Of a stretch of DNA of 64,000 nt, positions 14,433 through 48,533 are shown one piece after another. The translations under genes were made by a program, and so were the position numbers. The stretch's first letter is position 1. Each line of letters begins with the position of its first letter. The DNA comes from Lytechinus pictus. Lineage: Eukaryota. The notes beneath the pieces were generated by a model that was not told the origin of the DNA, ran no database searches, and saw only the letters and a program-made list of their open reading frames with translations. The stretch covers positions 63,059,097 to 63,123,096 of the forward strand of contig NC_087247.1 of the NCBI RefSeq assembly GCF_037042905.1. The letters are read 5' to 3'.

Positions 14433-14818
14433 GGACTAGGGTGATTTATGGTCTAAATATTTCTTTAAATGAATTGTGAAAACAGAAATTATGCACTTAC
14501 CACGATTATATGGATGAAGGTCTAACGAGTGGCAGTTTCCTGACATCTGGGCACAGACTGGAACCTCAAAAAACGAAAAGTTCTCTCCTTCTACCCCCGT
14601 CTCGATCGGCCATTTTTGTTATGAATTGTAACAAAATGGCCGATCGAGACTGGGGTAGAAGGAGAGAACTTGTCGTTTTTTTGAGGTTCCAGTTTGTGCC
14701 CAGATGTCAGGAAACTGCCACTCGTTAGACCTTCATCCATATAATCGTGGTAAGTGCATAATTTCTGTTTTCACAATTCATTTGGAGAAATATTTAGACC
14801 ATAAATCACCCTAGTCCC
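14433..14818. repeat. Near-perfect palindrome of ~386 bp (arms ~190 bp, centre ggccatttttgttatgaattgtaacaaaatggcc), flanked by two further short perfect palindromes (14373-14397 ctccggcccgcgcagcgggccggag; 14828-14862 ggacctcgacacgtcttaagacagtgtcgaggtcc)
   Basis: Arm sequences are reverse complements of each other (gggactagggtgatttatggtctaaatatttc...ctaacgagtggcagtttcctgacatctgggcacagactggaacctc...). Duplicate at about 17557-17942. Confidence 0.85.
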
Positions 14819-15305
14819 TTGCCCCGGGGACCTCGACACGTCTTAAGACAGTGTCGAGGTCCTGAATGCTACCATTCATTATCACCGGAGTACAAAACTT
14901 CGCGATGTTTGGCATTAGAAAACCGATGATCATAATGAATTAAAAATCTAATGAGTAATATCAATCTTACCTAAACAAACTGTTCCTAAATCAGCTTACC
15001 TTTGAAATAAGAATAATGAATATAATTCCATGAAATCCTTCAAAAGAGCATCAATTTTCGGACTTTTGTTCCAATCGCGAGATCGCCATGTTTGAAGAAC
15101 GTGAAAAAAAGTTTCTGCGCATGCGCATATGAATATTTATAAGTCTAAGATGACATCACTGTCTTTACAACACAGTTTAATGAATATGCATGTAAAGTCA
15201 AAACTTTCGGCAAGTCGCCTCGATTCAATTAAATCGTTATTTATACCATAGGCATATAATTAAATACCATATTTTCATTTTCATTTTATATATATATATA
15301 TATAT

Positions 15306-18300: not shown

Positions 18301-18412
18301 TTAATGAATATGCATGTAAAGTCAAAACTTTCGGCAAGTCGCCTCGATTCAATTAAATCGTTATTTATACCATAGGCATATAATTAAATACCATATTTTC
18401 ATTTTCATTTTA
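15306..18412 (+). repeat. 3.1-kb tandem duplication, copy 2; junction with copy 1 is a (TA)10-11 microsatellite at 15287-15307
   Basis: Same as above. Copy 1 ends ...ttcattttcatttta then (ta)n then atcggatattcaataac, which begins copy 2. Confidence 0.9.
17557..17942. repeat. Second copy of the ~386-bp palindrome (within duplication copy 2)
   Basis: Identical to 14433-14818. Confidence 0.85.
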
Positions 18413-21116
18413 AAAAAATCTGTATTTATGAAAAAATAATTTATTTCATAGATATTTTTATTTTGTTGCATTCTGTGTTTCTATAATATATTTTTTTTAA
18501 TTTTGTAATTTGTTATATCTCTCTCCTTTTCATCTTGTTTATGCTTTGTTTATGGGGGGGGGGGTAAAGCATGACTGTGTTCTCTTGGTGTGTGTGTGTG
18601 TTTTTTTATATAACTTCCTGAACAAAATAAAATTTATCAACAGTATGATTGTGTTTTATAATTATATTAAGAGATTTCTAGATCATGTAGAAATTTTTAG
18701 TCTGTATTATGATTATTCCCTTTGTGATTACGAAATATTAAAGAAATATTTACAGATTCTAATTTTACATTAAGAAAAATCAATTTACGATTTTCTTAAA
18801 TACGAATTATGATTTTATAAATTTTATACATCTTTTTCACTTGTTATAACAACGAGGAAGGATTGAATATGATTTTAAAACGAAAGGAAATACTTAAAAA
18901 CAATGTTGCCTCCTTTAAAAAGAAATATCAAGATATTGTAAAGAATAATTATAATAAAAAAAAAAAGAATCTGCCGCTTTGATAATCTCTAATTACCATT
19001 TGTTGTTTAATTCACCTCATGGCAGTAGCATAGGTTTTTTTAGTCACCCGCCTCCCCCCCCCCCCCCCCTCTAAAGAAAATTAATACAAAACGACCTCCA
19101 ATTCTATGTTAAAGACCTTTTTTTTTTTTTTGCTTGTCAAATTCAAATTAAAAACATGGAATTCACTGCTGGATCCAGGGGGAGGCCAAAGCCGGCTCGT
19201 GCTCCCCCCTCCCCTTGAGAAGCAAAATGAAAATTTGTGATGTAAAAAATGGTGTTAAAACCGAACTGTGCCCCCTCCCCTTTGAAAGTGAAGATCTTTT
19301 TTTTTTTCTTGTCATTTTTTTTCGGGGCCGAATTATTCTTTTTTTTTTTTTGTTAACAAAAATTTATTTCTTTTTTTTTTTGGCGAGTCAATTTTTTCAG
19401 GGACGAAATTTTCTTAATTTTTGGTTGAAAAACTTTTCTTCTTTTTTTTGCTCGTCAAAGTTTTCATTGGAAAAAATGTGCCCCCCCCCCCTTGAAAATC
19501 ATGGTTCCGCCACTAATTGAACTCATTTATACGAAGCGCTTACACTGTCAAAAATAATTTTAACAACGTTGTTTATTGTGTGAATTGCGCAGTATATAGT
19601 TCAAACATTTTAAACAAGTGTTTAAAGTCCTAAAAATCATGCTTTGATTATCAAATATTTGAATTTAAACTGCGTTGTTTAAGAATTTAAACACTTGTTT
19701 AAACTGTTTAAACAATTGTGTGATTCATGTCGTAAACAGCGTTTTTTTTTCAATCATTTATAACAGTGTACTTGAATGATTAGAAACTTAAATGACATGC
19801 AAAATATCAAATTAATGGCGCAAAATAGGCGAAAGGAGATTGATGACATATGAACTTCCATCTAGTAATATTGTACTTTCTTTTTTTCACATATATATTG
19901 TACGGCACAATTTTTATAACTGCCCCTTTTAAATGCTCAGGATAAGGCCGTCCGCGGCCCTAAATAAATAAGTAAAGAGCTGAAAAGCGAAAGAAGTAGC
20001 CTTTGTGGGTATGTAATTGACAGCATTGTTTTTATAAAGTTTACCGCCCTTACCTAAGGATCGGGAAAGTTGGTATACAATTTAAAGAAAAATATTACTT
20101 TGACATAGAATCTTAATACTAGTTCCGTTCCCAAATATTATTTTTTAAAACTTGATGCCGCCACGAAACACACTAGCATTAAGCCGAGATGGGAAAACGG
20201 GGTAGTATAGAAAGGTAAATAAAGGAGAAAAACAATATTATCATAATTTCCTCGCAAACTTGCGCGGAAGCAAATATTTAGAGAGAGAAAGAAAATGAGA
20301 AAGAAAATCCCGCAAAGCTATCTTTTTCGCCATTGCTTTCCCCTTCGCTCTCACCGTGTATACTGTCCTGGGGGGGGGCGTTAGGATGGGGAAGGCCACC
20401 CCACCACCTCCTTGCGACGCACTTGTTATAGAAAAAATTGAAAAGGTGCATGATAAAGCCCTAACTTTTATTGGGATGTTATGACAAAATATATCACAAA
20501 ATTGGATTTCTGCATCAATTCTTCAGTGGTACAGTAGTAGAAGTATATAGATAAGCTGATTTAGTGTCACCATTATTATTAATTAATTCTTAAGTAAAAA
20601 CAATTAAGATAAAGAACGAGACGTCTTTAGAAAAAAAAACGCCTCTTGGATGCCAAGAAAACAATCAGACAAGCAAGATTCGCGGCGACTTTATGCGTCC
20701 TATATAATGAGCAATTCAATTCTTTGTGATTATAGGCCTATACTTATCCCGCAGAGATTTATATACTCGATGATTGAATCTTACAGAATGCAAAAAAGAT
20801 GAAAGATAACATAGTAATCTATAAACAAACATATGAATTTTAATCATATTTCATGATTCCATAATCTCCGTTCAAAAATATTACAAATTAATATTGATAT
20901 AGGCATCAATAATGAAAATGGTTGTTGGATGATAATGAGATTTGCATATATTTTCATTTCATTTATTTATTTTAAATTCTCATTAAAACGTACAACATAC
21001 AATTCAAATTGAAAGAAGGATGCATGCACAGTATACAAAATAAACAAAATGTAAAACATAACAAGAGAGAAAGAAAAAAATCAAAATATATGGGATTGTA
21101 TGATGTCTTTAAAGGT

Positions 21117-21582
21117 CAAGTCCACCTCAGAACAATGTTGATTTGAATTAATAGAGAAAAATCAGACAAGCACAATGCTGAAAATTTCATCAAAATCGAA
21201 TGTAAAATAAGAAAGTTATGACATTTCAAAGTTTCGCTTATTTTCAACAAAATAGTTATATGAACGAGCCAGTTACATCCAAATGAGAGAGTCGATGATG
21301 TCACTCACTCACTATTTCTTTTGTTTTTTATTGTTTGAATTATACAATTTTTCAATTTTTCAGAATTTGACGATTAGGACCTCCTTGCCTGAAGCACAAA
21401 ATATTAAAATAATGGAATTCCACGATTCCACTATTTTGTTGAACATAAGCGAAACTTTAAAATGCCATAACTTTTTTATTTTACATCCGATTTTGATGAA
21501 ATTTTCAGTGTTATGCTTGTTGAATTTTTCTCTTTTTATTCAAATCAAGTTTTTGTTGGGGTGGACTTGTCCTTTAAAAAAA
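21117..21582. mobile_element. Foldback MITE: ~170-bp inverted arms, ~120-bp spacer (family motif gaaaatttcatcaaaatcgaatgtaaaataagaaagttatgacatttcaaag)
   Basis: 21117-21290 ggtcaagtccacctcagaacaatg... is the reverse complement of 21415-21582 ...cattgttctgag-like ...ttgttggggtggacttgtcc. ORFs 21116..21304 and 21283..21612 are artefacts. Confidence 0.6.
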
Positions 21583-21780: not shown

Positions 21781-23461
21781 CTCATGCAATGCAAGGGACG
21801 TAGGCCTACTCCTTTTTTTTAGAAAAAAATAATTGAAAGAATCAAATTTACTTACGGGCCAAGTTTTATGACGTATAGGTGTAATGGAAACTGTCAGTGT
21901 AAAAAAATCAAGCATTAGTCCCAAAGAAAAAGAGAAACTAAGCCAAACATTGCCATCCTTATTTTGCCACACATGTCTATTGTCTTGTCATGGAGATATA
22001 ACTGAGAACAAGGTTATAATATCATAACCTTGTTCATTGAATGAGTGCATAGCCCCTTCCTTCTCTCTCTTATCTCGCCTATTAGGCCATATCTCTTTGC
22101 CTAGCCTAGGCTTGCCTTAGTATTGTGTTTCACCAACCTGGTGGACTGTACTTTAACGGATGATGATCTACCCAACATCACTCCATCCATTACGCGCATC
22201 GCTATACGTGGGCCTACGGCTACGCAAACAACGTGGGTAGACAAAAAATAACCAGAGTTTGGACTGAAATTGTGAATAAAATAAAAGTGACAAAAATATT
22301 CTGAAACCGTATATATGATTCCCAATATTTAATTAATGGAAAAAACATCCACCGCTAATCAATAGAAACTGGGAAAGATTTGACAGAGGTTTTTATCAAT
22401 GGTAATCAACGGGAATTAGTGTATGGATGAATGGCGATCGAGCGTTAGCCGGTGAAAGAGCGCGGGCGCCCGATCTTGCACTTGCATGCAGTAGCCAACG
22501 CTTAACGGCGATTGCACGAACGTGATATGCAGTAAGGGTACCGCCTGATACACTGAAATCGACATTTCCCGAATTCTTCATACACGTAAAAGCAAAGTAG
22601 GATAAAGGCCACTTGTACTTGGAGAGCCGCCCAATTTCTCTAGATTAAGGTTTCAAAATAACGAAACTTACCTGTTTTTTATTCAAACTGCGAGTAGACC
22701 AGTCCTAGACCTAGGCATATGTCATGATTGAGGCTATGTAACTGTGGTTGTGGAGCTGAGCGAAGGGTCCGTCCCTGGCGCGGCCTGGCCGGCTGGGGAC
22801 TGTTGAATGCGCGCGCACGACGAGATGGTTCCGGGACAGCCCGACCACCGGACAGCCCGACCCTGGACAGCCCGACCCGCTGCCCTGGACAACTCGTCCC
22901 GGTCGAGTTGTCCAGGGTTGGCTCTGAATCGGACAACTCGACCACTTGAATTCTTCTTCAACATTTCATAAAAATAAAATTTCAAACTTTACTACAAAAG
23001 TATTTTCCCGCATAATCCATGTTTCTACAATACATTCTCGACAGAAATTTCAGTGCATTCCGCTGTGGTGACCCCATTCACTAGTAGGATGGGGGATCGG
23101 GTGTCCGGACACTTTATATTTTTGAAGCCTTCTTTTTTGTCTTAAGATTACACTAAAAATATGAATTCAATAGTTGTAATCATCTTATATTTTGTTCTCT
23201 ATAATATTTCATTACAGTTTGTACTAAAAATTGATGACACTTCGCTTGTAATTTTTTCCAAATGACTTTCTAAAATTGATCGTCCGGACACACAACCATC
23301 CGGACACACAACAACTGGGTATACCCCTTCCTAAAATCTGATAAATCCGTGATCAATCCGTGATAGTTTGGAGAGTCTTGAAGTAGATCTATTATCAGTC
23401 CTAATCGTTGAACCAAGGAGCTATGTATAATAGCTCCATGGTTGAACATACTATATACCAA

Positions 23462-23716
23462 TAATATTTACACTCTAAATTACAGGGATTTAAAATTAGT
23501 CCACATGGACTGTAGTTAGGGACCAATCGAATTCCGGATTTAATTGAATCCTTCAGATTCCTTTTTTAAATCCCGAAAGATTTAAATTTAATTTGAATTT
23601 AAATCATTTGAGATTTAAATTTAAGTCTTTAGGATTAAAACAAAATCCAGAAATCGATTGGTCCCTAACTACAATCCATCTAGACTTATTTTAAATCCCT
23701 GTAATTTAGAGTGTAC
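23462..23716. mobile_element. Stowaway-like (Tc1/mariner-type) MITE: ~60-bp TIRs CACTCTAAATTACAGGGATTTAAAAT..., flanked by a TA dinucleotide on both sides (putative TSD)
   Basis: 23464 tta|CACTCTAAATTACAGGG ... CCCTGTAATTTAGAGTG|tac 23716. The internal ~130 bp is itself palindromic. Confidence 0.55.
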
Positions 23717-24594
23717 ATGTATATATATATGCATATAGTATTCCCCAATTCACAGCTAAATCAACATACAGTACAGTGGTGCCAAACATACCTTCATCAG
23801 TTTATATTCCACTTTTCTTCTCTTTTTCAATCTCAAAGTATAATAGATAATGATTTCTTCATTTTGGACTTTGTATGATATAGGCATTTATTGTTTTCTC
23901 ACACTTGTATGGAATCCGGAATGTGCAGCTTATATATCTTTTTTTCTTTCTGGGACGTCTTTGTCTGTTAGTGTTACTGTCGGCTGACTTTAAAGGGGAA
24001 TCCAGCCTTGGCCATAAAATGTTGTGTTGGAAAGGAGAAAAATAAATTAAACAGAATGGCGAAAGTTTGAAAGAAATCGGACAAGCAATAAGAAAATAAT
24101 GGCTGCTTTAAAATTGAGATCACTAAATAGTATGTAGATTTCAAATTGGCAACTGGGTAAGTAAATTATGACAAGGGGCAAGGACAACTTTCCCATAAGC
24201 CATATGTATTTCATTATCAGGGATTTGTGGTTTTCTCCTAAGTACCCATTCCCCTGGGGCAGTAATCTAATTATAATCCAGGTAGTATATTGTTTTATGT
24301 CCTCATGAAAGAAAAATATAATTTGAAATAAAACTTTTGGGGAAAATGACATTTTAGCCGTAATATGTATTGGAGTACATGGAAGAGTAGTCCTTGCCTT
24401 ACATCACTATGACATCCCATATGCGGCCAATTTGAAGTCTCCATGGGTATAGTGATTGCCAATATTTACAACTTTTAAAAATTCATAACTTTCTTGTTGT
24501 TTGTCCAATATTGTTCAAACTTTCACCTATCAACTTGTCTGATTTTTCTTTTTCTTATAAAAACAAGTTTTTATTTGGGTTGGATTCCCTAAAT

Positions 24595-27500
24595 TGGCGT
24601 CGATCCGGCAGGTCATTAATATTCATGAGCTTAGAGATCTTGTTCGACCGATGACGTTGCTCATTAATATTAATATTACGGTAACACATCGCGGGTGCGC
24701 CTCACCACTTACAACTTAACCCTATCAAGTGCAGTTATACTGGCGTAAATCCAGCAAAATCCGGCAGTTTTTATGGAAATAACCAAAATAATGACAATGA
24801 ACCCAAATCAAAGTGTTGGTTTGTCCAACTTGATGGAAAAGACAGCATGGAGCTAGTAAAGCAGAAACCATTCATGGAAAAAGATTCACAACTTGTATTT
24901 TCAATTCCCCATTCATATCAATGTGCATAAAACTGGCGTCGATTCAGCATCTTTGGCGCAAACCCGGCAGTTTTTATGGAATTAACCAAAATAATGACGA
25001 TGAACCCAAATCAAAGTGTTGGTTTGTCCAACTTAATGGAAAAGACAGCATGGCGCTAGTAAAGCAGAAATCATTTATTGAAAAAGATTCACAACTTGTA
25101 TTTTCAATTCCCCATTCATATCAATGTGCATAAAACTGGCGTCGATTCAGCATCTTGGGCGCAAATCCGACAGTTTTTATGGAATTAACCAAAATAATGA
25201 CAATGAACCCAAATCAAAGTGTTGGTTTATCCAACTTGATGGAAAAGACAGCATGGAGCTAGTAAAGCAGAAATCATTTATGGAAAAAGATTCACAACTT
25301 GTATTTTCAATTCCCCATTCATAACAATGTGCATAAAACTGGCGTCGATTCAGCATCTAATTTGGCGCTAATCCGCCGGGCAGTTTTTATGGAATTAACA
25401 AAAATAATGACGATGAACCCAAATCAAAGTGTTGGTTTGTTCAACTTAATGGAAAAGACAGCATGGCGCTAGTAAAGCAGAAATCATTTATGGAAAAAGA
25501 TTCACAACTTGTATTTTCAATTCCCCATTCATATCAATGTGCATAAAACTGGCGTCGATTCAGCATCTTTGGCGCAAACCCGGCAGTTTTTATGGAATTA
25601 ACCAAAATAATGACAATGAACCCAAATCAAAGTGTTGGTTTGTCCAACTTGACAGCATGGAGCTAGTAAAGCAGAAATCATTTATGGAAAAAGATTCACA
25701 ACTTGTATTTTCAATTCCCCCATCATCATCATGTCAATGTCCATAAAACTGGCGTCGATTCAGCATCTTTGGCGCTATTCCGGCAGTTTTTATGGAATTA
25801 ACCAAAATAATGACAATGAACCCAAATCAAAGTGTTGGTTTATCCAACTTGATGGAAAAGACAGCATGGAGCTAGTAAAGCAGAAATCATTTATGGAAAA
25901 AGATTCACAACTTGTATTTTCAATTCCCCATTCATATCAATGTGCATAAAAACTGGCGTCGATTTAACATCTTTGGCGCTAATCCGGCAGTTTTTATGGA
26001 ATTAACCAAAATAATGACAAGGAACCCAAATCAAAGTGTTGGTTTGTCCAACTTGACAGCATGGAGCTAGTAAAGCAGAAATCATTCATGGAAAAAGATT
26101 CACAACTTGTATTTTCAATTCCCCATTCATATCAATGTGCATAAAACTGGCGTCGATTCAGCATCTTGGGCGCAAATCCGGCAGTTTTTATGGAATTAAC
26201 CAAAATAATGACGATGAACCCAAATCAAAGTGTTGGTTTGTCCAACTTAATGGAAAAGACAGCATGGAGCTAGTAAAGCAGAAATCATTTATGGAAAAAG
26301 ATTCACAACTTGTATTTTCAATTCCCCATTCATATCAATGTGCATAAAACTGGCGTCGATTCAGCATCTTGGGCGCAAATCCGGCAGTTTTTATGGAATT
26401 AACCAAAATAATGACAATGAACCCAAATCAAAGTGTTGGTTTATCCAACTTGATTGAAAAGACAGCATGGAGCTAGTAAAGCAGAAATCATTTATGGAAA
26501 AAGATTCACAACTTGTATTTTCAATTCCCCCATCATCATCATGTCAATGTCCATAAAACTGGCGTCGATTCAGCATCTTTGGCGCTAATCCGGCAGTTTT
26601 TATGGAATTAACCAAAATAATGACGATGAACCCAAATCAAAGTGTTGGTTTGTCCAACTTAATGGAAAAGACAGCATGGCGCTAGTAAAGCAGAAATCAT
26701 TTATTGAAAAAGATTCACAACTTGTATTTTCAATTCCCCATTCATATCAATGTGCATAAAACTGGCGTCGATTCAGCATCTTGGGCGCAAATCCGACAGT
26801 TTTTATGGAATTAACCAAAATAATGACAATGAACCCAAATCAAAGTGTTGGTTTATCCAACTTGATGGAAAAGACAGCATGGAGCTAGTAAAGCAGAAAT
26901 CATTTATGGAAAAAGATTCACAACTTGTATTTTCAATTCCCCATTCATAACAATGTGCATAAAACTGGCGTCGATTCAGCATCTAATTTGGCGCTAATCC
27001 GCCGGGCAGTTTTTATGGAATTAACCAAAATAATGACGATGAACCCAAATCAAAGTGTTGGTTTGTCCAACTTAATGGAAAAGACAGCATGGCGCTAGTA
27101 AAGCAGAAATCATTTATGGAAAAAGATTCACAACTTGTATTTTCAATTCCCCCATTCATATCAATGTGCATAAAACTGGCGTCGATTCAGCATCTAGGGC
27201 GCAAATCCGGCAGTTTTTATGGAATTGACCAAAATAATGAAAATGAACCCAAATCAAAGTGTTGGTTTATCCAACTTGATGGAAAAGACAGCATGGAGCT
27301 AGTAAAGCAGAAATCATTTATGGAAAAAGATTCACAACTTGTATTTTCAATTCCCCATTCATATCAATGTGCATAAAACTGGCGTCGATTCAGCATCTTT
27401 GGCGCAAACCCGGCAGTTTTTATGGAATTAACCAAAATAATGACAATGAACCCAAATCAAAGTGTTGGTTTATCCAACTTGACAGCATGGAGCTAGTAAA

Positions 27501-29130
27501 GCAGAAATCATTTATGGAAAAAGATTGACAACTTGTATTTTCAATTCCCCCATTATCATCATGTCAATGTCCATAAAACTGGCGTCGATTCAGCATCTTT
27601 GGCGCTAATCCGGCAGTTTTTATGGAATTAACCAAAATAATGACGATGAACCCAAATCAAAGTGTTGGTTTGTCCAACTTAATGGAAAAGACAGCATGGC
27701 GCTAGTAAAGCAGAAACCATTCATGGAAAAAGATTCACAACTTGTATTTTTAATTCCCCCATCATCATGATCATGTCAATGTGCATAAAACTGGCGTCGA
27801 TTCAGCATCTTTGGCGCTAATCCGGCAGTTTTTATGGAATTAACCAAAATAATGACGATGAACCCAAATCAAAGTGTTGGTTTGTCCAACTTAATGGAAA
27901 AGACAGCATGGCGCTAGTAAAGCAGAAATCATTTATTGAAAAAGATTCACAACTTGTATTTTCAATTCCCCATTCATATCAATGTGCATAAAACTGGCGT
28001 CGATTCAGCATCTTGGGCGCAAATCCGACAGTTTTTATGGAATTAACCAAAATAATGACAATGAACCCAAATCAAAGTGTTGGTTTGTCCAACTTGACAG
28101 CATGGAGCTAGTAAAGCAGAAATCATTTATGGAAAAAGATTGACAACTTGTATTTTCAATTCCCCCACTATCATCATGTCAATGTCCATAAAACTGGCGT
28201 CGATTCAGCATCTTTGGCGCTAACCCGGCAGTTTTTATGGAATTAACCAAAATAATGACGATGAACCCAAATCAAAGTGTTGGTTTGTCCAACTTAATGG
28301 AAAAGACAGCATGGCGCTAGTAAAGCAGAAACCATTTATGGAAAAAGATTCACAACTTGTATTTTCAATTCCCCCATCATCATGATCATGTCAATGTGCA
28401 TAAAACTGGCGTCGATTCAGCATCTAATTTGGCGCAAATCCGGCAGTTTTTATGGAATTAACCAAAATAATGACAATGAACCCAAATCAAAGTGTTGGTT
28501 TATCCAACTTGATGGAAAAGACAGCATGGAGCTAGTAAAGCAGAAATCATTTATGGAAAAAGATTCACAACTTGTATTTTCAATTCCCCATTCATATCAA
28601 TGTGCATAAAAACTGGCGTCAATTTAACATCTTTGGCGCTAATCCGGCAGTTTTTATGGAATTAACCAAAATAATGACAAGGAACCCAAATCAAAGTGTT
28701 GGTTTGTCCAACTTGACAGCATGGAGCTAGTAAAGCAGAAATCATTCATGGAAAAAGATTCACAACTTGTATTTTCAATTCCCCATTCATATCAATGTGC
28801 ATAAAACTGGCGTCGATTCAGCATCTTGGGCGCAAATCCGGCAGTTTTTATGGAATTAACCAAAATAATGACAATGAACCCAAATCAAAGTGTTGGTTTA
28901 TCCAACTTGATTGAAAAGACAGCATGGAGCTAGTAAAGCAGAAATCATTTATGGAAAAAGATTCACAACTTGTATTTTCAATTCCCCCATCATCATGATC
29001 ATGTCAATGTGCATAAAATTGGCATCGATTCAGCATCTTTGGCGCTAATCCGGCAGTTTTTATGGAATTAACCAAAATAATGACAATGAACCCAAATCAA
29101 AGAGTTGGTTTGTCCAACCTGATTGCAAAT
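24595..29130 (+). repeat. Satellite array A: 176-bp unique flank (24595-24770) then about 22 tandem units of ~203-206 bp (consensus ...cataaaactggcgtcgattcagcatctttggcgcaaatccggcagtttttatggaattaaccaaaataatgacaatgaacccaaatcaaagtgttggtttgtccaacttgatggaaaagacagcatggagctagtaaagcagaaatcatttatggaaaaagattcacaacttgtattttcaattccccattcatatcaatgtg)
   Basis: Visible periodicity. Unit variants recur in a higher-order pattern. The 66-95 aa ORFs listed at 24921-28609 are reiterations of the same unit. Confidence 0.9.
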
Positions 29131-29749
29131 TAACAAGGTTAACATTTTTCTTAAAATATCACAACCCATACAAGAAAAAAATAAAATCTAACATTTTCCC
29201 GCAAAATAACAATGAACGTCATTCCAACTTTAAGACGAAGGGGGCATGAAAGCCATGCAGGAGTTGAGGACAGCGAAGAAGTAGAAGAGTGCACTTGCAC
29301 GTCTTACGACAATAGATATTAATTATTTTGGCTATTTTCCAGGGCTGTTACGTACGTTTTCAACACTAGCGTACCTAAGGGGTGAAGGGGGCAGACTGCC
29401 CCCCCTGACGAGTCACAAACAAAAAAAAGGAAGCGAAAAGGTGGAAAGAAAAAAGAAAAGAGGAAAAAGGAAAGAGAGAAAAAAGGGGGAAGGGAAAAAG
29501 AAGAAAGAGTTTAAGAAAAAGGGAAAAACAAAAATTGGACTGCAGACTGTCGGGAAAAATGATAAACTGTCGGGCACTCGAGGCTGTTCCAACTGATTTG
29601 GTTTTTTAGTTCCACCATCTTTGTCGGTAAATGTAAATTAAACTGTACACTTTTATCGGTAAATTGTGATTTTTACGCAATGAGACTTTTATAGCTCTCT
29701 GTACCCATAGAGAGAGGATGGACTGGGCTGACCAGGGACAGGAAAAGAG

Positions 29750-30760
29750 AACAACTTTTAGGTATATTATAACAATAAAAATTTCGCTCCTGCTACGCGC
29801 TGCGCTCGCATCAATTTTTTGGTTGGGTACCTAAGATAAATGTTTAGTTGCAGGTTGAAATATCAAAAATGTTCAGCTCGCACTTCGCGCTCGCGTCAAT
29901 TGATTAGTTGAAAACCAATTTGTTCACGGTTACAAAAAGTGCTTATAATATCCAGTTCTCAAGTTAGGCCGGAATATCAAAAATTTAAGCTCGCGTTTCG
30001 TGCTCACATATAACTATTTAGGTATATCCATCCTGTTCATAGATAAATTAAGTGGTTAGAATGTCCGGTTTTCAGGTCGGAATATAAAACATAAAACATA
30101 TCAAAAATATATAATTAGAAACCAATTTGTTCACGGTTACAAATATTGCTTAGAATATCAAATTCTTAGGTTGGAATATCAAAAAATTGCCGCTCGATCT
30201 CCGCACTCGCATAAAGTTCCATCCTGTCCATAATTAAATGAAGTGCTTAGAATGTAAAGTTTTCAGGTCGAAATATCAAAAGTTTTCAGCTGGCGCTTCG
30301 CGCTCACATGCACAATTAATTGTTTTTAACTACCATCTTGTTCATACTTAAAAAAGGTGCTTAGAACGTTCACTTTTCAGGGGGGAATATCTCAAATTTT
30401 CAGCTCGCCCTTGGCGCTCGCATCAATTAATTATTCAGTTAGAAACCGATTTGTTCATGGTTACTAAAAGTGCTTAGAATATCCAGTTCTTAAGTCGGAA
30501 TATCAAAAGTTTTAGCTGGCGCTTTGTGCCCGCACGACTGTTTAGATACCCATCTTGTAAAATTGCTTAGAATGTCTAGTGTCCAGTTAGGAATATCAAA
30601 ATTTGTAGCTCGTGCTTTGCGCTCGCATAATTTATTAATTTATTAAGGAAGATACTCATCCTATTCATATAGTTAAGTACACAAATGGATTGTTTTTGGT
30701 CTAAATTTTTAGAAAATTTCAGCTCGCGCTTCGCGCTCGCATTTATTATTTTTATATAAT
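29750..30760. repeat. Degenerate ~110-115-bp minisatellite, about 9 units; each unit contains agctcgcgcttcgcgctcgca ... ttgttcacggttac ... gtgcttagaatatc ... aatatcaaaa
   Basis: Repeated anchors spaced about 110-115 bp apart across 29750-30760. Confidence 0.7.
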
Positions 30761-30974
30761 TTTAGTGTAAGTTGTTAGGCACGTGCAAGTGAAAGTGAAG
30801 TGTTTTTGGGGGGTGGGGCTTGTCAATTTTTTTGTAAACAAATTTTCTCCTTGAAAATCCTGGATCTGCCCATGGGTTGGATATAAATGAGTATTGGTCG
30901 TCGGACGTCAGTAATCGGTACTGATATATGTCGGTAAAGGCCTAGCTATACCCCTGTTAACACATTCCTCTAGT

Positions 30975-32186
30975 CAGTGGCGTAACAGGCGGGGGGTAGG
31001 GGGGCAAGTTGCCCCCCCCTGGCGGATTTCACCGGGAAAATAAAATAAAAACGGGAAGAAAAAAAAAGGAGGGAGAAAGAAAGGGAAAGGGGAAGGAAAG
31101 GAAAAAAGGAAAGGGGGAAAGGGAAAGGTAAAGGGAACAGTGAAAAGAAACAAAGAATTTTTTTTTTTTAAAGGAAAAAGAAGGAAAGCGGGAAAATATA
31201 CGAAAGAACATCTGAGAAAGAACAAATCATTCCGAAATACGCCTATGTAATGCAGTAGCACGGTGGGAAATAAATTAAAAGATGTCAAAATGGCAAACAA
31301 TAGCGGGAAATGAATATAATGGAAAAATCTATCACATAATTAGAATTTAATTTCAATGGGCAATTTTTTTCCAGCTCGCTTTGCACACTGGCGACTTTTT
31401 ATATATTTTTCCCACATTGCTATGTTTTGCCCCTCAAAATATTTGGTTCAAAACGCAACTGGGTTAAATAAATGTGTTGTGTAAAAGCTATATGTATATG
31501 CCCGCGATTTCAAAAGAGCGGCAATCTGCGAGGTTTAAATGGCTTTGATATCAAGAAGTTCCGGGGGCTCCGCCCCGGACCCCAACCGCACAGCACTGCG
31601 TATGGAAGGGTTGGGCCATGGCCCTAAAAAGTTCTACAGACAAGAAAAAAAAAGAGGAAAGAAAAGCAAAGGAAAAGTGTAGGATATGATTTAAATTACT
31701 GAACATATAATGTCAAAAAATAGCTCAAAGTTCGATTCTCATGAATAGATGACTTTTTCTCGCTCGCTTCGCTCGCTCGTTACTTATACAAAGCAGCTTT
31801 TTAGCACATGTGCTATACTGTGCCCCTCACATTTTTTTTTGTTCCTCTTCACGCTACTGCCGCAAAAGAATCCTGTTCACAGTGGCGTACAGACCACAAA
31901 AAAAGGAATCTAAAGAGAAAAGAGTAAAATATATTATTATCTGGATATCATGTCAAAATCTATCACAAAATTGGATTTTGGTATTAAAAAGGGCAAAATT
32001 TTTGCTCGCTCGCTTCGCTCGCTCGCAGCTTTTTTTAAAGATAAATTTTCCACGATACACAATATCTGGCCTTCTCAAAATAGTCGCCTCATTACACCAT
32101 TACGCCTGTTCATACCATGATATGACCGGGAATTTTTTGGCTCTTGTCCCCCCCCCCCCCTGGCCACCGACCCCTGTTACGCCGCT
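30975..32186. mobile_element. Element of the G-run/C-run hairpin family: left terminus CAGTGGCGTAACAGGCGGGGGGTAGGGGGGCAAGTTGCCCCCCCCTGG, right terminus CCCCCCCCCCCCCCTGG...CCTGTTACGCCGCTG
   Basis: Termini are reverse complements (CAGTGGCGTAACAGG / CCTGTTACGCC(A/G)CTG). The interior holds a polypurine tract at 31030-31200 and duplicated ttgctcgctcgcttcgctcgctcg blocks. A further right-end-like terminus lies at 33553-33608 (cccccctgacgaaatatgctaGGTACGCCACTGG). Confidence 0.45.
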
Positions 32187-32559
32187 GCCTCTAGTTATTA
32201 CAGTACCCCCTTCCTATCCTGTGTACCCGATCCCTTCGCCCGCCTATCTATATTTTCCAATTTCAATTCCCTCAACCTTCTGACATTCCTGCTAGTGAGT
32301 GAGTGATCTAGTGATGTATCATGTTACTGTCGCATATATTTTCACGTTCATATTTATTTTTTTATGAGTGAATGTATGGAAATAAAACAAATGCAAATCA
32401 ATACATGAACACAACTGAGTTCAATGTCAAATACCTCTTTTATAACGTCTCCAAATGAGCAGAATTGGGAACATAATGTAAAAACCTTCAAAAGAGGAAT
32501 TAAAGAAGTATTTTAAAGGGGAATGAAATCTTTGGAACAAGTTGGCTTTTGTGGAAACA

Positions 32560-33050
32560 GAAAATTCAAAGAATAAGATCAAAGCAAGTTTGAGAAAAAT
32601 CAGACAAATAATGAGAAAGTTATGAGCATTTGAATATTGTGATCACTAATGCTATGGAGATCCTCCTATTGGCAATGCGACCAATATTTGTGATGTCACA
32701 TGTGAACAACTTTCCCTTTGATGGACTATAAAATACCCTGAAAATGTCTATTTTTGCTCTTTGTTAGTGTGATACATACTCTTTATCCAAAATGCATTCT
32801 TTGAAAATCTGTATTACATGCCCTCATATAGAAAGAATACATGATGTACTGATAGATGTGATAAAAGAGGCATTTTAAGTGAAATATATAGAAAAGTAAT
32901 GGGAAAGTTGTTCACATGTGACATCACACATCTTTGTCGCATTGCCAATGGGAGGATCTACATTACAATAATGATCTAAACTTCAAATACTCATAACTTT
33001 CTTATTATTAATTCAAATTTTTCTCAAACTTTCGTTTATTTGTTTCTTTG
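32560..33050. mobile_element. Related foldback element (arms at 32575-32720 and 32870-33030)
   Basis: gagaaaaatcagacaaataatgagaaagttatgagcatttgaa...cctattggcaatgcgaccaatatttgtgatgtcacatgtgaacaactttccc is matched by gggaaagttgttcacatgtgacatcacacatctttgtcgcattgccaatgggagg. Confidence 0.55.
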
Positions 33051-34444
33051 ATTTTTCTGTTTTTGCATAAGCTATATGTTTCAAGGGTTTCATTTTCCTT
33101 TTATAAACATGATTAGAAATTTATCGATCACGATCCAATACATTTCATTTCTGGAATGATATAAAAAAAAGAAATAATTTCGACAATAAAGTGCAATCGC
33201 CCGATAGGAAATATCAGTAGTAGCAAGATCCCAACTGTTTTATTGGGCACCCCCTGGGTAACCTTTCCCATCTTCAGTGCCACTTCCAGACCTACACATC
33301 CAAACGTGTATGGGGGTGGGCTGCAAAATGCAGGGCAACAGGGACTGCGAGGTGCCCAAATATCCTCGTGTATTGGTAATTCTATGACCGAATGTATAAT
33401 TTCTGCAAGTTTCATATCATGTAAAAAGGCTAAATAATTATTGGAAAAAAAAATGTTCGCTCGCTCGAAAATTAAAAACTGTGAAGTTGATATTTGGGCA
33501 ATGATTATCAGCCCCCCTTGAAAAATTATGCCTATACGTCCATGCCTACTACCCCCCCCCTTTGCTCATTCTTGCCCCCCTGACGAAATATGCTAGGTAC
33601 GCCACTGGTTTTCAAGCTTTGCTTTTGCAATTACGACCCTTGCAACCATCCTATTTATTGTGTAACAGAAAATACCACTTAATTTTTTTTTCATTTATGT
33701 ATGATATATTTGATGATTTATGTACAAAAGGTATTGTTCACTATCTTGATGTCGAAATTCAGATATGTATTTTCTTGTCCAGAATTTTGTTATGAAAAAT
33801 GTTGCAAAAACCAATAAATGAAATGAAAAGAAAGCTTGACTAGAAGGGAAAAAAGAAATACAATGAAAGAGGAAGAAAGATAATAAGAAGTAATAAGAGG
33901 AAGGAGAGAGAAATAAAGAGGAAAAGAAAACATGTGGAAATTTTGTTAATTTGAAGCTAACACTGCAGTGCTAAGCGTGAACAAAATTACTTGGTCCAAA
34001 ACACATCACATACACTCACAATACCATATCACATATTCATCCACCACTACAGGATGCATATCACTGAGACACTTTGGGGTGGGGGTGGAGCAAAACACAA
34101 TTTGAGTTTGTCAACAATTAAAAACACAGAACTAACACAATGAAAACATATATTGTATTTACACACCTGAAACAGTGATTCAACATCATGTTTCATTTAT
34201 TCATTTAATTCTTCATCATCTTGAGAGTTTAACATAATTTATCTAATAATCACTTGCATCTTCATGAAACACAAGATAATATTTTAGCTCAGTTTTCACA
34301 CTTATTTCTCCCTTCTGTAATAAATTTAAGGTACCGGTATTCCAAAAAAGTTTGTAAAATGTAAGTACATTCGGTTACATATCTATTAGGGCAGAATATA
34401 TGTTTAGCTTTATTACTCTAATATGAGGGAATCTACCTTACATA

Positions 34445-35241
34445 ACAAGTGATAGCACCTCTGGCAGTCTCACCTACATTACACAATTCAATATAGTACC
34501 AGTGCTGACTTTGAAAACTATGAAATAATTATTTACAAAAAACACCATTCATATAATGATATAATACTATGCTCATTGACCCTAAATGACATTTGACCTT
34601 AATCATGTAACCTAAAACTTGTCAGTGATACTAGATTACCCCTATGTCTACAATTCATAAACTATATCCATAAACTTTGAAAGTTGTGACAGCAATTTAA
34701 TAATTACCACCAACTTTGACATTGGTCATGTGACCTTAAACTCGCACGGGATGTTCAGTGATACTTGATTATTTACTCATATATCCAAGTTTTATGAACA
34801 AGACCAATAAACTTTCAAAGTTATGATGGTAATTCAACATATACCCCCAACTTTGCCAAAGTTCATTGACCTTAAATGACCTTGATCATGTGACCTTAAA
34901 CTCGCACGGGATGTTCAGTGATACTTTACTCATATATCTAAGTTTCATGAATCAGATCCATAAACTTTCAAAGTTATGATGGTAATTCAACAGATACCCC
35001 CAACTTGGCCAAAGTTAATTGACCCTAAATGACCTTTGACCTTGGTCATGTGACTTGAAACTCAGGCAGGATGTTCAGTAATACTTGATAAACCTTATGT
35101 CCAAGTGTCATGAACTAGGTCCACATACATTCTAAGTAATGATGTCATTGTAAAAACTTAACCTTTGGTTAAGATTTGGTGTTGACGCCGTCGGAAAAGC
35201 GGCGCCCATAGTCTCACTCTGCTATGCAGGTGAGACAAAAA
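34445..35241 (+). mobile_element. Same TIR/satellite element family, copy 3 (diverged, about 4 units)
   Basis: Left AACAAGTGATAGCACCTCTGGCAGTCTCACCTACAT, right ATGCAGGTGAGACAAAAAC. Confidence 0.7.
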
Positions 35242-35369
35242 CAATTTAGAACTCAATGATACTGATGAAACTATTACATTATCTAATTTTTGTTTATGAA
35301 ATAACTGCTGTTTAGTAAAAATATTTTTTCAGAGATCCGATTTGAACCTTGTAATTTGATTTTTTTTCT

Positions 35370-36395
35370 TTATCCCAGTAGAAACTGGAATTACGCCAGT
35401 TTAATGCACATCGATAATGAAAGGGGAATTGAAAATAAGAGTTGTGAATCTTTTTCCATTAATGATTTCTGCTTTACTAGCTCCATGCTGTCTTTCAATC
35501 AAGTTGGACGAACCAACACTTTTATTTGGGTTCATTGTCATTATTTTGGTTAATTCCATAAAAACTGCCGGGTTTGCGCCCGAGATGCTGAATCGACGCC
35601 AGTTTTATGTACATCGATATGAATGGGGAATTGAAAATACAAGTTGTGACTCTTTTTCCATTACTGATTTCTGCTTTATTAGCTCCATGCTGTCTTTTCA
35701 ATCAAGTTGGACAAACCAACACTTTGATTTGGTTTATTGTCATTATTTTGGTTAATTCCATAAAAACTGCCGGATTAGCGCCAAAGATGCTGAATCGACG
35801 CCAGTTTTATGCACATTGACATGATCATGATGATGGCCGGGGGAATTGAAAATACAAGTTGTGAATCTTTTTCCATGAATGGTTTCTGCTTTACTAGTTC
35901 CATGCTGTCTTTTCCATCAAGTTGGACAAACCAACACTTTGATTTGGGTTCATTGTCATTATTTTGGTTAATTCTATAAAAACTGCCGGATTAGCGCCAA
36001 AGATGCTGAATCGACGCCAGTTTTATGCACATTGACATGATCATGATGATGGGGGAATTGAAAATACAAGTTGTGAATCTTTTTCCATGAATGGTTTCTG
36101 CTTTACTAGCTCCATGCTGTCTTTTCCATCAAGTTGGACAAACCAACACTTTAATTTGGGTTCATTGTCATTATTTTGGTTATTTCCATAAAAAACTGCC
36201 GGATTTTGCTGGATTTACGCCAGTATAACTGCACTTGATAGGTTGTAAGTGGTAAGTGGTAAGTGGTGAGGCGCACCCGCGATTCCCAATGTGTTACCGT
36301 AATATTAATATTAATGAGCAACGTCATCGGTTGAACGAGATCTCCAAGCTCATGAATATTAATGACCTGCCGGATCGACGCCAATATAGTCTCAA
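35370..36395 (-). repeat. Satellite array B: about 5 units of the same ~205-bp satellite in inverse orientation, plus the same flank inverted (36190-36395)
   Basis: 35540-35580 cattgtcattattttggttaattccataaaaactgccgg is the reverse complement of the array A unit. 36350-36395 gctcatgaatattaatgacctgccggatcgacgccaat is the reverse complement of 24595-24640. Confidence 0.9.
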
Positions 36396-36639: not shown

Positions 36640-36900
36640 TAATCCACTCACACTTATTGCGAGGTAACCCAGACTCGAGAGCTCCCGCCCGCGCAGCGGG
36701 CGGGAGCCCAGAAGCTTACTGTGTATTTGACCATATTCACCGGACTAGGGTGATTTATGGTCTAAATATTTCTCCAAATGAATTGTGAAAACAGAAAGTA
36801 TACCACGATTATATGGATGAAGGTCTAACGAGTGGTAGACAGGAATAACCGTCGTTTCTGGGGATTTATTCAACAATTTCTGACATTTTACTGTAATCCC
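36640..36900. repeat. Partial (single-arm) copy of the palindrome element
   Basis: gagagctcccgcccgcgcagcgggcgggagc...ccggactagggtgatttatggtctaaatatttctccaaatgaattgtgaaaacagaaagtataccacgattatatggatgaaggtctaacgagtgg, then the reverse complement of 14240-14300. Confidence 0.7.
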
Positions 36901-37305
36901 CATTAACCGACGGTAGGGTATACGTGTGGGCTCGCATGTTTTCTCATTCCCACCCTTTTGTCAATTCACAGTCCAAAGTTTGATGTAATTTTACACATCG
37001 AATTTACAATCTAAGGATGTATAGCCATCAAACTTTTAAACCATGATATTTAGTGAAGACAATATTTTAAACGATATAGATTAAAAGGCATGAAAAATTA
37101 TACTTTACCGATGTTTAATTGGGTTGAACACGATCAAAATAGTCAATATGGCAGCCAAACTGTGAAATATTTACAAACGAACGGAGAGGGCGTCAACAAT
37201 CACGAATGTGATATCGATATTGCTTTCGATATTATACGATCTGCTCCTTATGCGAGCGAAACCGCTACGATCACAAGTAGCAGACGACAATCAAACGATC
37301 ACTTT

Positions 37306-40744: not shown

Positions 40745-41195
40745 CCCCCTCCGCTTCAGTCTATGTATGGTGAGTGAGCCAACGCAGTTCAGCGGAACAA
40801 CCAAAATACAGAGACTGAAGCTTTTGGTCTAAACGAGTGGCAGTTTCCTGACATCTGGGCACAGACTGGAACCTCAAAAAAACGAAAAGTTCTCTCCTTC
40901 TACCCCCGTTTCGATCGGCCATTTTTGTTAAAAATCGTAACAAAATGGCCGATTGAGACTGGGGTAGAGGAGAGAACTTTTCTATTTTTTGAGGTTCCAG
41001 TCTGTGCCCAGATGTCAGGAAACTGCCACTCGTTAGACCTTCATCCATATAATCGTGGTAATTGTATACTTTCTGTTTTCACAATTCATTTGGAGAAATA
41101 TTTAGACCATAAATCACCCTAGTCCGGTGAATATGGTCAAATACACGGTAAGCTTCTGGGCTCCCGCCCGCTGCACGGGCGGGAGCTCTCTGGGT
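40745..41195. repeat. Third copy of the palindrome element, inverted relative to the 14.4-kb copy; left arm truncated, right outer palindrome gggctcccgcccgctgcacgggcgggagctc at 41159-41189
   Basis: 40826-41040 matches the ctaacgagtggcagtttcctgacatctgggcacagactggaacctc...ccatttttgtt...aacaaaatggcc... core. 40745-40830 is the reverse complement of 14150-14230. Confidence 0.75.
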
Positions 41196-41439
41196 TAATT
41201 GCGAGGTTGTATGCCATACTCACCCAAGCCAAGGGTTCATTACATGCCGCCGCGCACAGAAAAATCAAGCCATAGAAGTTGTGTGTTGTGGACACCAGGG
41301 GCCTGTTGCATGAAAGGGTCTTTCGTAGAACCATTCTACGTAAGAACGAGATATCGCTCAACTGTTTCACAAAGCCGATTTGGGCGATACGAAGAACGGC
41401 CAACGGTCCTCTTGGAAAGACACCTCCAGACCACTCACA

Positions 41440-45089: not shown

Positions 45090-45870
45090 CTAAAATTCCC
45101 TTTTCTTTTCACTTTTCCCTCCCTCCCTCCCTCCCTCCCTGAAATGATCTGAAATATCAGAAATAAGTATTCCTGAACGTATAGAGCAAGTGTCGTTAGT
45201 TATAATGTTGTCTATTACAGAAACAGAATGCGGAGTGACACGAGTTGGATATTTTATAAGAGGAATCATAGAGTGAGGCATGAGTAAATCAACAAAATCA
45301 GTTACACTCTGTACTTAACCAACATTCAGTAAATTAATGTTAAAGTCACCAATTATATATAAAACATTTTTTCCTCTATTTACAATTCAAACAAATTTAT
45401 GAGAAATGAAAAAAAATGATCTGTTTGGTAACCGGGAGGCCTATAAATAACACCAAGCAATACAGAATATTTATGATTACAAATTTCAATAAAAATACTT
45501 TCGGTGAAATCATTATTTACATCAAGATCACATCGACGTTTAAAACTAATGTCGGATCGAATAAAAATACCAACACCTCCACCACGTCTAGTCTTCCTGC
45601 TATTATTAATGAATTCATAATTATCAAGATTATACATAGGTAGAGTTGACTGATCATTAATCCATGTTTCTGATATACCAATTACAGACGGTTGGATTGA
45701 AAGAGAACTAATAAATAAAGACAAATTATCAAAGTTACGACATAAGCTTCTACAGTTGACATGAATGCAAGATAACTTGCTAGCAACTGTTTCAGAAAAG
45801 TAAGTATTTGACAAAAAATTATTGAATTCAGAAGGAGTGTAATAAGCTTCTGCATGTAGAGGACCGTGGT
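45090..45870 (-). pseudogene. Truncated, frameshifted non-LTR retrotransposon (LINE, CR1/L2/jockey-like) ORF2 apurinic-endonuclease domain
   Basis: Minus-strand ORF 45380..46063 contains LSCIHVNCRSL...IGISETW...RKTRRGGGVGIFIRSD...LLGVIYRPP. The second frame 45090..45281 continues with IDNIITNDT...SGILISDISDHF. These are the hallmark EN motifs (GGGVAIY, RPP, SDH). The frameshift and lack of a downstream RT indicate a dead copy. Confidence 0.7.
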
Positions 45871-46396
45871 CACTTACAAAATCAGCTGGAGTTACATATT
45901 CTTGCAGATTATCTACATCAATTTCATTTAGATAATTCAAAACACGATTTTGGCGAGCCATTTCATGAAAAACAAACAAATACAAAAAAGAAGCTGGAAA
46001 ATATAAACAACAATCACCAAGGAGCAAAATGTTAAAAAAAAAAAAAATTACAGGAGTAATCAAAACTTAAATACAACATTTACATGTATTTACAATAAAA
46101 AGAATATATGCAGGGTATATGTGGTTATCCAATATACAAAGGGTTTGGCAACAGACAATAAGATGCAACAATCGGAACACTAGGAGAAGATTGTTCAATA
46201 CGATATACATTAAGCTGAATTGGTGTAATTGGTGTAATGACATACTTATTCACAGTAATGAAACAGTGAGAAATAAAATGAAAGGAGGAAAGCCAAAGCA
46301 GCAAGAAAGAAGGAGGAGAAAAATAACATTTCCATTCAATAAAATACATTTTTCCCTACAGGCATTTCACAGTATACTGGCTGGTATACATAAACA

Positions 46397-48467: not shown

Positions 48468-48533
48468 ACGTCTGTTAAAATGAAGCTTCTATGCATCCAA
48501 GTTATCAAAGATCTTCTTGGAGATAGTATTGAT
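48468..48533 (+). CDS. COMMD4: COMMD4 exon 3: TSVKMKLLCIQVIKDLLGDSID
   Basis: Acceptor ctacag|, donor |GTGAGT at 48534. Matches human [22 protein letters not shown]; phase-0 junctions are consistent with exons 2 and 4. Confidence 0.8.

Follow-up and report, generated by a model that had tools for sequence, protein, structure and literature searches.

The question raised by this locus is how a satellite came to lie in two inverted arrays with matching outer ends: within one large foldback transposon, as part of two copies of a smaller mobile module, through local copying of an array edge, or as a product of faulty assembly. The window (the whole 64-kb stretch of DNA that was analysed) is the Lytechinus pictus COMMD4-like locus, and the inverted pair sits ~12 kb upstream of the COMMD4-like gene. 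What recurs there is a module of ~1 to 4.5 kb in which a head of ~165-180 bp is followed by a 203-bp array, with constant polarity; two such modules lie in opposite orientation, separated by ~6.3 kb, with their heads outward, their arrays reading inward and their arms unequal. The reading that we rank first, and that was absent from the initial annotation, is that a non-autonomous element carrying tandem repeats is present here twice, and that the array of one copy (array A) was later expanded by unequal exchange; we hold it tentatively, as an account with somewhat less than an even chance of being right. The features concerned, in window coordinates, are as follows.

23995..24589, no strand assigned: old MITE-like element beside head A, with termini GGGGAATCC...GGATTCCC and TAAA on its flanks
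24594..24756, + strand: head A (flank module), 163 nt
24590-24617: monomer-junction-like start of head A
24613-24630 and 24659-24676: palindromic motif pair TCATTAATATTCATGAGC / GCTCATTAATATTAAT of head A, with a 15-bp stem and a 28-nt loop
24701-24756: diverged copy of the monomer 3' third, in head A
24703-24721: CCACTTA-like microsatellite piece of head A, about 2 units
24757..29129, + strand: array A, 21 full 203-bp monomers and an 83-nt partial one (BLAST)
29130..35242, no strand assigned: central DNA unrelated to the module, including purine-rich microsatellites
29839-30637: degenerate ~114-bp tandem repeat in the centre
32515-33101: self-complementary MITE-like element in the centre
34442-35242: copy of a HINE-like, tandem-repeat-bearing family in the centre
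35243..35392, - strand: tail of copy B
35393..36206, - strand: array B, 3.9 monomers (BLAST, 36206-35393)
36207..36384, - strand: head B, 178 nt, laid out as head A
36241-36268: CCACTTA-type run of head B, 3 units

Arrays were detected with TRF, and monomers were mapped by BLAST with one monomer as query. TRF places array A at 24757-29118 (203 bp, 21.4 copies, 91% matches) and array B at 35423-36205. The inverted satellite arrays of the initial annotation are present, with a period of 203 rather than 205 bp, and its ~22 (+) and ~5 (-) units become 21.4 and 3.9, the latter plus a degenerate fifth; its arms of 4.5 kb (A) and 1.0 kb (B) hold with the heads counted in, and the central 6.2 kb that it assigned to other repeats measures 6.26 kb (29130-35392). 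Array A terminates in mid-monomer and contains identical monomer pairs (A03=A11, A07=A20, A10=A16) that bespeak recent unequal exchange; these pairs are merely scattered, with no regular higher-order period in the array. All long open frames of the satellite lie on the + strand. An unrelated 3.1-kb tandem duplication of 99.8% identity is found nearby.

Both modules have a sharp outer end. Homology begins with TTGGCG at 24594 and 36384, the outer flanks are unrelated, and the exact 19-mer terminus TTGGCGTCGATCCGGCAGG occurs in the window only at 24594 (+) and 36384 (-), with 0 occurrences expected by chance; with the MITE conceptually removed, homology extending into the outer flanks was not significant (216/500 shuffles reach the score). 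The segment at 24595-24770 had been described as recurring, reverse-complemented, at 36190-36395; a reverse-complement match does exist, at 36383-36193 (BLAST, 191 columns, E=1e-71), with an identity of 89.5%, and the claim of identical outer termini is incorrect: over 163 aligned bases the heads show 5 substitutions (~3%), and there are also indels of 7 and 8 nt, head B having an extra 7-nt insertion (TGGGAAT) and one more CCACTTA-type unit than head A.

A misjoin, or a long read that is itself chimeric and palindromic, is one conceivable source of the inverted pair. Assemblers are well known to have difficulty with inverted repeats and satellite arrays, and the unrelated 3.1-kb duplication (99.8%) is close by. 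Chimeric palindromic reads, however, yield near-perfect arms and no spacer, whereas here the arms differ in substitutions, indels and monomer composition, 6.3 kb of unique spacer separates them, and the window contains 0 N runs. Taken together, the diverged arms, the spacer and the lack of N runs show that neither a perfect-palindrome read nor an assembly artefact underlies the structure, and we consider an artefactual origin of any such kind very improbable.

The composition of the head points back to the satellite. Its right ~55 nt align to monomer positions 129-203 with a score of 67 (shuffle maximum 34), whereas the similarity of its first ~27 nt to the monomer junction is borderline (score 29; shuffle mean 16.8, maximum 32). 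Judged from its sequence, the head is composed of satellite-monomer fragments placed around an anonymous hairpin-bearing insert. Immediately 5' of both heads stands TA(A/T)A (TAAA for A, TATA for B), a possible target preference.

The junction between head and array is likewise conserved. The first monomers, A01 and B1, are each other's nearest neighbours and jointly carry the private variants GGAAATAACC and GAAACCATTCATGG, a combination present in no other monomer, from which it follows that head and array are one inherited module. Since the head occurs twice, and with it the junction to the first monomer, a simple inversion of the satellite, one of the origins suggested in the initial annotation, is excluded; the hairpin-type rearrangement that it named alongside survives in the form of an inverted duplication. 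Under this model, template switching or break repair near a hairpin-prone array would have copied the array edge, consisting of the head and a few monomers, in inverted orientation a few kb away with no transposition, and the arrays would then have turned over independently. Such an event would accommodate two inverted copies near each other with none elsewhere in the window, the lack of a target-site duplication of any kind, and inner ends that are unrelated or weakly related. Hairpins are possible both in the head and at the monomer junctions, each of which is bracketed by the inverted repeat CATAAAACTGGCG...CGGCAGTTTTTATG (fold z=-2.3).

Several observations are less easily explained by local copying. 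The closest relatives of B2-B4 are not A02-A04, although recent turnover of array A could have wiped out positional orthology past the first monomer. The outer homology ends at a monomer-junction-like motif, and copy A ends within 4 nt of the end of the old MITE, neither of which is expected of a random breakpoint. Moreover, copy B seems to continue through a degenerate last monomer of its own with no arbitrary stop: the tail at 35392-35335 is a degenerate fifth monomer entered via the shortened junction ACTGGCGTAATTCCAG, the remainder of the tail being anonymous AT-rich DNA that is unique within the window. Within array B, B3 and B4 carry many private changes. The tails of A and B are at best weakly alike (permissive scoring, 12/500 shuffles reach the score), which tells against two copies of one element and not against local copying; the 15-mer CAAATTA(A)CAAGGTT at both array ends (59/500 under strict scoring, not significant; 12/500 under permissive scoring, marginal) is no more than a hint. 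We regard local inverted duplication as a live rival to which only limited probability can be given.

The initial annotation described the whole as a ~11.8-kb foldback-like structure. Its inverted geometry is far beyond chance; as a single mobile unit the block is unsupported. A foldback transposon of the Tetris, FB or TU type would comprise long terminal inverted repeats (head plus 203-bp array) and a non-coding middle of ~6 kb, the whole being mobilised by a transposase encoded elsewhere. The arms are indeed inverted repeats in which a flanking domain lies on the outside and tandem repeats follow inward, as in FB and Tetris elements, and the proximity and heads-out orientation of the two modules are explained at no extra cost. 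A close comparison is Tetris of Drosophila virilis, a foldback transposon known from several two-armed copies with 8-10-bp target-site duplications, the TIR-220 repeats of which turned into a satellite (PMC4079207). As in Tetris, the flanking domain is outermost and has a short stretch in common with the monomer, the ~200-220-bp tandem repeats inside it vary in number from arm to arm and can expand in satellite-like fashion, and the middle is variable and non-coding. Foldback elements of sea urchins are also on record (Liebermann et al. 1983, cited in PMC4079207).

Set against this resemblance, the 11.8-kb block is not flanked by any direct repeat of at least 5 nt (one mismatch allowed at 7 nt or more), in contrast to the duplications of Tetris, and none was seen by eye after conceptual removal of the MITE abutting head A; nor was a target-site duplication found around either module copy. 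The two-armed arrangement is known from one locus, homology between the inner ends of the arms is unconvincing, and there is no sequence relationship to Tetris, the host here being an echinoderm. No coding capacity was detectable in the centre (ten open stretches, picked from those of at least 60 aa, had no Pfam hit), and Pfam returned nothing relevant for the ORFs of the window.

The age of the centre also speaks against the foldback model. The HINE-like family has four copies in the 64 kb, with tandem repeats of 153-192 bp and clear hallmarks of its class (subTIR GTCTCACCTGCAT / ATGCAGGTGAGAC, a terminal hairpin and (GCC)n); its central copy is 77-86% identical to its relatives, compared with ~97% between the heads, so that the central repeats are much older than the module pair. 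The families in the centre also occur outside the block: the MITE-like element at 23995-24589, which stops 4 nt short of head A and lies outside the repeat module, has arms that match each other, as well as 32515-33101, 21155-21562 and 13509-13605, at ~68-73%. Nothing in the search for target-site duplications, the coding capacity of the centre or the age of its repeats shows the 11.8-kb block to be one mobile unit. We therefore judge a single foldback transposon unlikely, and a genuine, possibly still mobile, Tetris-like echinoderm foldback element whose repeats are now seeding the 203-bp satellite quite improbable. If it were a true foldback, the locus would give the Drosophila case a counterpart among deuterostomes and would let the sea-urchin 'TU' foldback elements of the 1980s be viewed at the level of modern sequence; it could also be a source of hairpin-driven rearrangements near genes. 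The TU elements of Strongylocentrotus purpuratus, attributed to Liebermann et al. in 1983, are said to have long inverted terminal repeats containing tandem repeats around a heterogeneous middle, with very short repeat units, reportedly of around 15 bp compared with 203 bp here. Compared by description only, the present locus is like them in its sea-urchin host and in the tandem repeats of its long inverted termini.

To return to two copies of a mobile module, this reading would treat each module as a non-autonomous, tandem-repeat-carrying element comparable to the HINEs of the Helitron superfamily or to tandem-repeat MITEs, mobilised in trans and inserting without target-site duplication. Two insertions in opposite orientation would have come to surround ~6.3 kb of older resident DNA, after which array A would have grown to 21 monomers by unequal exchange and array B would have remained short and decayed. 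In its favour are the sharp outer boundary of homology in both copies, a boundary at which, with only two copies, an element terminus looks the same as a duplication breakpoint; the inherited head/array junction; the inverted repeats and short microsatellite-like run ahead of the array, which follow the order of the HINE left flank; and the presence of inverted repeats at the monomer junctions and of a bona fide HINE-like family in the same 64 kb. The partial derivation of the head from monomer pieces, the TA(A/T)A before both heads, the absence of a duplication flanking the block, and central repeats much older than the divergence of the heads are also consistent with it. What the sequence shows directly is the module structure, the sharp outer end common to both copies, the preserved head/array junction, the lack of a duplication around the block and the turnover inside array A; transposition as the origin of the copies, and the kind of enzyme behind it, we infer.

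HINEs are non-autonomous Helentrons, exemplified by Cg_HINE of the Pacific oyster, DINE-1 of Drosophila and 'Tsp' of sea urchin (PMC7492417, PMC4067079), and both Helentron proteins and DINE-1-like 'Tsp' elements are on record from sea urchins. In both copies of the module, as in HINEs, an inverted-repeat pair and a microsatellite-like run occupy the left flank, upstream of a satellite-like array of fixed polarity and variable length, and no target-site duplication is present. The details depart from HINEs in several respects: the near-palindromic motif TCATTAATATTCATGA of the head is 19 nt in from the end, with its partner GCTCATTAATATTAAT at a distance of 28 nt, as against 2-4 nt and 1-22 nt, respectively, in HINEs; the 5' flanks read TAAA and TATA instead of TT or T-rich sites; and an array of 21 monomers is long. 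Neither tail contains a 3' partner of the terminal or palindromic motif of the head, and the 3' subTIR and palindrome that define HINEs (in a conserved right flank of ~60 bp) were accordingly not found, the head motifs occurring nowhere else in the window; head B has no inverted match of at least 8 nt to its own tail, and head A has only AT-rich matches at chance level.

Tandem-repeat-containing MITEs provide a second comparison, as represented by DTC84 of Donax trunculus and pearl of oysters (PMC3879986), and array flanks in which monomer fragments alternate with anonymous sequence have been described for Helitron-superfamily elements (PMC5139131). Features in common with these systems are position-specific monomer variants beside the flank, palindromic monomer junctions, a microsatellite bordering the array on one side, and a flank of monomer pieces interleaved with unrelated sequence. 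DTC84 differs in having at most 5 repeats, short inverted repeats on either flank and a putative AA duplication, features that could not be demonstrated here. Canonical Helitrons, which insert between A and T and have a 5' TC, a 3' CTRR and a hairpin ~11 nt short of the 3' end, were rejected on the grounds that the unit starts with TTGGCG and, in reverse orientation, ends in ...CGCCAA or ...TTTAG/TATAG, with T following only one copy. A SINE-derived or retrozyme-like origin (tRNA, 5S or 7SL head, hammerhead ribozyme) was also rejected: no tRNA was found, and Rfam gave no match at gathering thresholds for the window and none at E<=1 for the head and monomers.

Against two independent copies stands also their distribution. 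BLAST finds only two module copies in the 64-kb window, 6-12 kb apart and inverted, and such proximity with none elsewhere matches a linked origin; independent insertion fits only with a very abundant family or local hopping, and heads-outward is one of four possible orientations. Nor was a copy found in the outside collections searched (metagenome, viral contigs, protein ORFs). A 20-mer of the head recovered 7 metagenome loci, representing 3 distinct sequences, that match over 20-38 nt only, lack the satellite and have 40-45% GC, and these were rejected as chance-level matches; a monomer 21-mer had no match among viral contigs, and the longest satellite ORF returned no candidate from the protein collection. 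An exact-match look-up of one window ORF and the L. pictus COMMD4-like protein gave no record. Full-text searches with 12 oligomers drawn from the satellite, from the head and from the repeat family nearby retrieved no paper, and searches of the literature on sea-urchin satellites and foldback elements turned up general papers only and no echinoderm satellitome study.

All three main readings are of known kinds, and the locus, whose pattern is the familiar one of transposon and satellite, illustrates known processes and reveals no new one. On the two-copy reading, it would be a clear case, sequenced throughout, of a transposon turning into a satellite in a deuterostome, in which a flank of monomer fragments, a position-specific first monomer and hairpins at the monomer junctions can be seen together, and in which one copy, after expansion to 21 units, sits beside a short, decaying sister. 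Such large inverted repeats can give rise to rearrangements nearby, and the COMMD4-like gene lies ~12 kb away.

The 11.8-kb block is a real and well-defined structure, in which the repeated unit is a module consisting of a head (the short flank preceding each array) and an array of 203-bp satellite monomers. Its parts are as follows:

24594-24756 (+), head A
24757-29129 (+), array A: 21 full monomers and one 83-nt partial
29130-35392, centre, ~6.26 kb between the inner array ends
36206-35393 (-), array B: 3.9 monomers
36384-36207 (-), head B

The initial annotation of inverted satellite arrays with inverted outer heads is correct in outline, as established by Tandem Repeats Finder, by BLAST and by the first 19 bases of the head, TTGGCGTCGATCCGGCAGG, whose only two exact occurrences lie at 24594 (+) and 36384 (-), against a chance expectation of none. 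Tandem Repeats Finder reported the 203-bp period at 24757-29118 (21.4 copies, 91% matches) and, inverted, at 35423-36205, while BLAST with one monomer against the window gave the unit counts listed and no further monomers outside the two arrays across the 64 kb. The original count of ~22 units stands for array A, which stops mid-monomer at ~29129; the ~5 units of array B become 3.9, of which B3 and B4 are decayed, followed through a shortened junction by a degenerate fifth monomer at 35392-35335 (score 41 vs a shuffle maximum of 34). The heads had wrongly been described as identical. BLAST matches 24595-24770 to the reverse complement of 36383-36193 at 89.5% over 191 columns (E=1e-71), and the two heads are ~97% alike, with 5 substitutions across 163 aligned bases plus one indel of 7 nt and one of 8 nt.

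The head is related to the satellite itself. Its closing ~55 nt correspond to monomer positions 129-203 (score 67, shuffle maximum 34), and its first ~27 nt resemble a monomer-to-monomer junction with a short deletion, a borderline similarity (score 29; shuffle mean 16.8, maximum 32). Between these monomer-like pieces lie ~85-105 nt of anonymous sequence carrying, in both copies, a near-palindromic motif pair (24613-24630 / 24659-24676) with a 15-bp stem and a 28-nt loop; all three head A/B substitutions within this hairpin part fall in the loop. A CCACTTA-type microsatellite-like run has ~2 units in head A and 3 in head B. A metagenome scan with the head motif returned only chance-level matches of 20-38 nt. 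Among these, an exact 20-23-mer, (A)GGTCATTAATATTCATGAGC(TT), is common to the head and to unrelated contigs (L003/L005/L006, i.e. Ga0056114_1002055, Ga0209680_1015565 and Ga0056130_1020813, and L002), and in one contig group the match extends to 32/38 nt of the head terminus; given the collection size these matches probably arose by chance, although the motif is near-palindromic.

The first monomers after each head, A01 and B1, are reciprocal nearest neighbours and have in common variants combined in no other monomer, so the head/array junction was inherited whole. Because head and junction each occur twice, a plain inversion of a single satellite locus, one form of the satellite-rearrangement origin first proposed, is ruled out. 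A palindromic read or collapse in the assembly is highly improbable, since the arms have diverged and have 6.26 kb of unique sequence between them; the window also contains no N. Past the first monomer the arrays do not correspond position by position, and their tails (the sequence past each array) are at best weakly alike, the strict score being reached by 59/500 shuffles and the permissive score by 12/500. Array A shows recent turnover and contains three identical-monomer pairs at differing lags. An inverted repeat brackets every monomer junction (fold z=-2.3). The 203-bp family seems to be undescribed. Oligomers of the satellite, the head and the neighbouring repeat family had no match in paper searches, nor did the satellite ORF in a protein collection or the satellite in a viral-contig scan.

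The centre was rightly annotated as a mixture of other repeats, and comprises:

purine-rich microsatellites
29839-30637, degenerate ~114-bp tandem repeat
32515-33101, self-complementary MITE-like element, ~590 bp
34442-35242, copy of a HINE-like family carrying tandem repeats (HINE, non-autonomous Helentron)

Ten of its open stretches, selected among those of at least 60 aa, had no Pfam match. Against its three relatives in the rest of the window, the HINE-like copy reaches only 77-86% identity; on account of this value, compared with ~97% for the heads, and of its repeat types, the centre has the look of common resident DNA, older and no different in kind from that around the block. The MITE-like family is old, has termini GGGGAATCC...GGATTCCCC adjoining TTTAAA-type sites and also reaches the block's edge:

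23995-24589, ending 4 nt before head A
32515-33101, in the centre
21155-21562
13509-13605 / 16633-16729

No direct repeat of at least 5 nt flanks the block; with the element at 23995-24589 conceptually removed there was still no duplication, and the outer flanks showed no significant additional homology. Positions 23448-23741 form a separate self-complementary stretch of ~300 bp. Beginning ~300 nt outside head B is a dispersed repeat of young age (89-96% identity between copies: 36677-36908, 41023-41199, 14227-14535 / 14715-14817; duplicate at 17351-17941).

These observations bear on the other origin first proposed, a very large foldback transposon. The arm architecture matches point for point that of Tetris, a foldback transposon of Drosophila virilis, down to a flank with a short stretch in common with the monomer (PMC4079207), and foldback elements are known from sea urchin; Tetris, however, has 8-10-bp target-site duplications (PMC4079207), which are missing here, and the middle consists of old DNA of resident type. 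We regard a Tetris-like foldback as rather unlikely, and an echinoderm transposon of this type seeding a satellite as less likely still. Local inverted duplication of an array edge, itself unlikely but slightly less so, would account for the proximity, the inversion and the absence of any duplication, but does not predict that the homology should stop at a junction-like motif right next to the end of a different element.

The candidate explanations are all of known kinds. The one we tentatively rank first is that the block holds two copies of a tandem-repeat-carrying non-autonomous element, which would have inserted twice without target-site duplication, array A later being lengthened by unequal exchange. 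The ranking rests on module layout and on Helentron-type sequences in sea urchin. In the module, a flank in which monomer fragments alternate with anonymous sequence is followed by an inverted-repeat pair, then by a microsatellite-like run and finally by an array whose polarity is fixed, whose junctions carry palindromes and whose first monomer is position-specific; this is the layout described for Cg_HINE (PMC7492417) and other Helentron derivatives (PMC4067079), DTC84 and pearl MITEs (PMC3879986) and Helitron-type array flanks (PMC5139131). From sea urchin, both Helentron proteins and DINE-1-like 'Tsp' elements have been reported (PMC4067079), and the window holds four copies of the HINE/DINE-1-like family:

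3103-3878, one orientation
7055-8392, same orientation
34442-35242, same orientation
49662-50358, opposite orientation

This neighbouring family carries the full HINE signature, with subterminal inverted repeats (subTIRs) GTCTCACCTGCAT / ATGCAGGTGAGAC, a terminal hairpin GTCTCAC...GTGAGAC, a (GCC)n microsatellite, 153-192-bp internal repeats and A-rich ends, and is probably a sea-urchin 'Tsp'-type element. At 54140-54202 an end fragment of the family occurs on its own. HINE membership of the module is not established, because a 3' subTIR or palindrome to match that of the head is missing from both tails; with only two copies, an element terminus and a breakpoint are inseparable, and the closeness of the copies favours a linked origin.

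The window is eukaryotic DNA. Elsewhere in it lie an exon encoding a COMM domain and the remnant of a non-LTR endonuclease, and tRNA and Rfam searches of it gave no match. The exon corresponds to 'COMM domain-containing protein 4-like [Lytechinus pictus]', six segments of which were placed by tblastn, identical to the protein save at segment ends, where alignments overrun splice sites; the sequence is thus almost certainly that of the painted sea urchin. The block lies ~12 kb upstream of this gene. The features concerned are:

48480-58142 (+), COMMD4-like gene
59988-60755, 139-bp satellite-like array downstream of it, 5.6 copies, 88% matches
45380-46063 (-), ORF with an endonuclease/exonuclease/phosphatase domain, non-LTR retrotransposon remnant (weak Pfam match, E=1.3e-4)
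52718-53068 (-), non-LTR retrotransposon remnant, on visual inspection resembling the C-terminal end of an ORF2 of CR1/L2 type
12178-15305 and 15303-18429, 3.1-kb direct tandem duplication, 99.8% identity

The 3.1-kb duplication, with a T-rich 69-bp tandem repeat inside both of its copies (13080-13390, 16205-16514), is either very recent or an assembly duplication.
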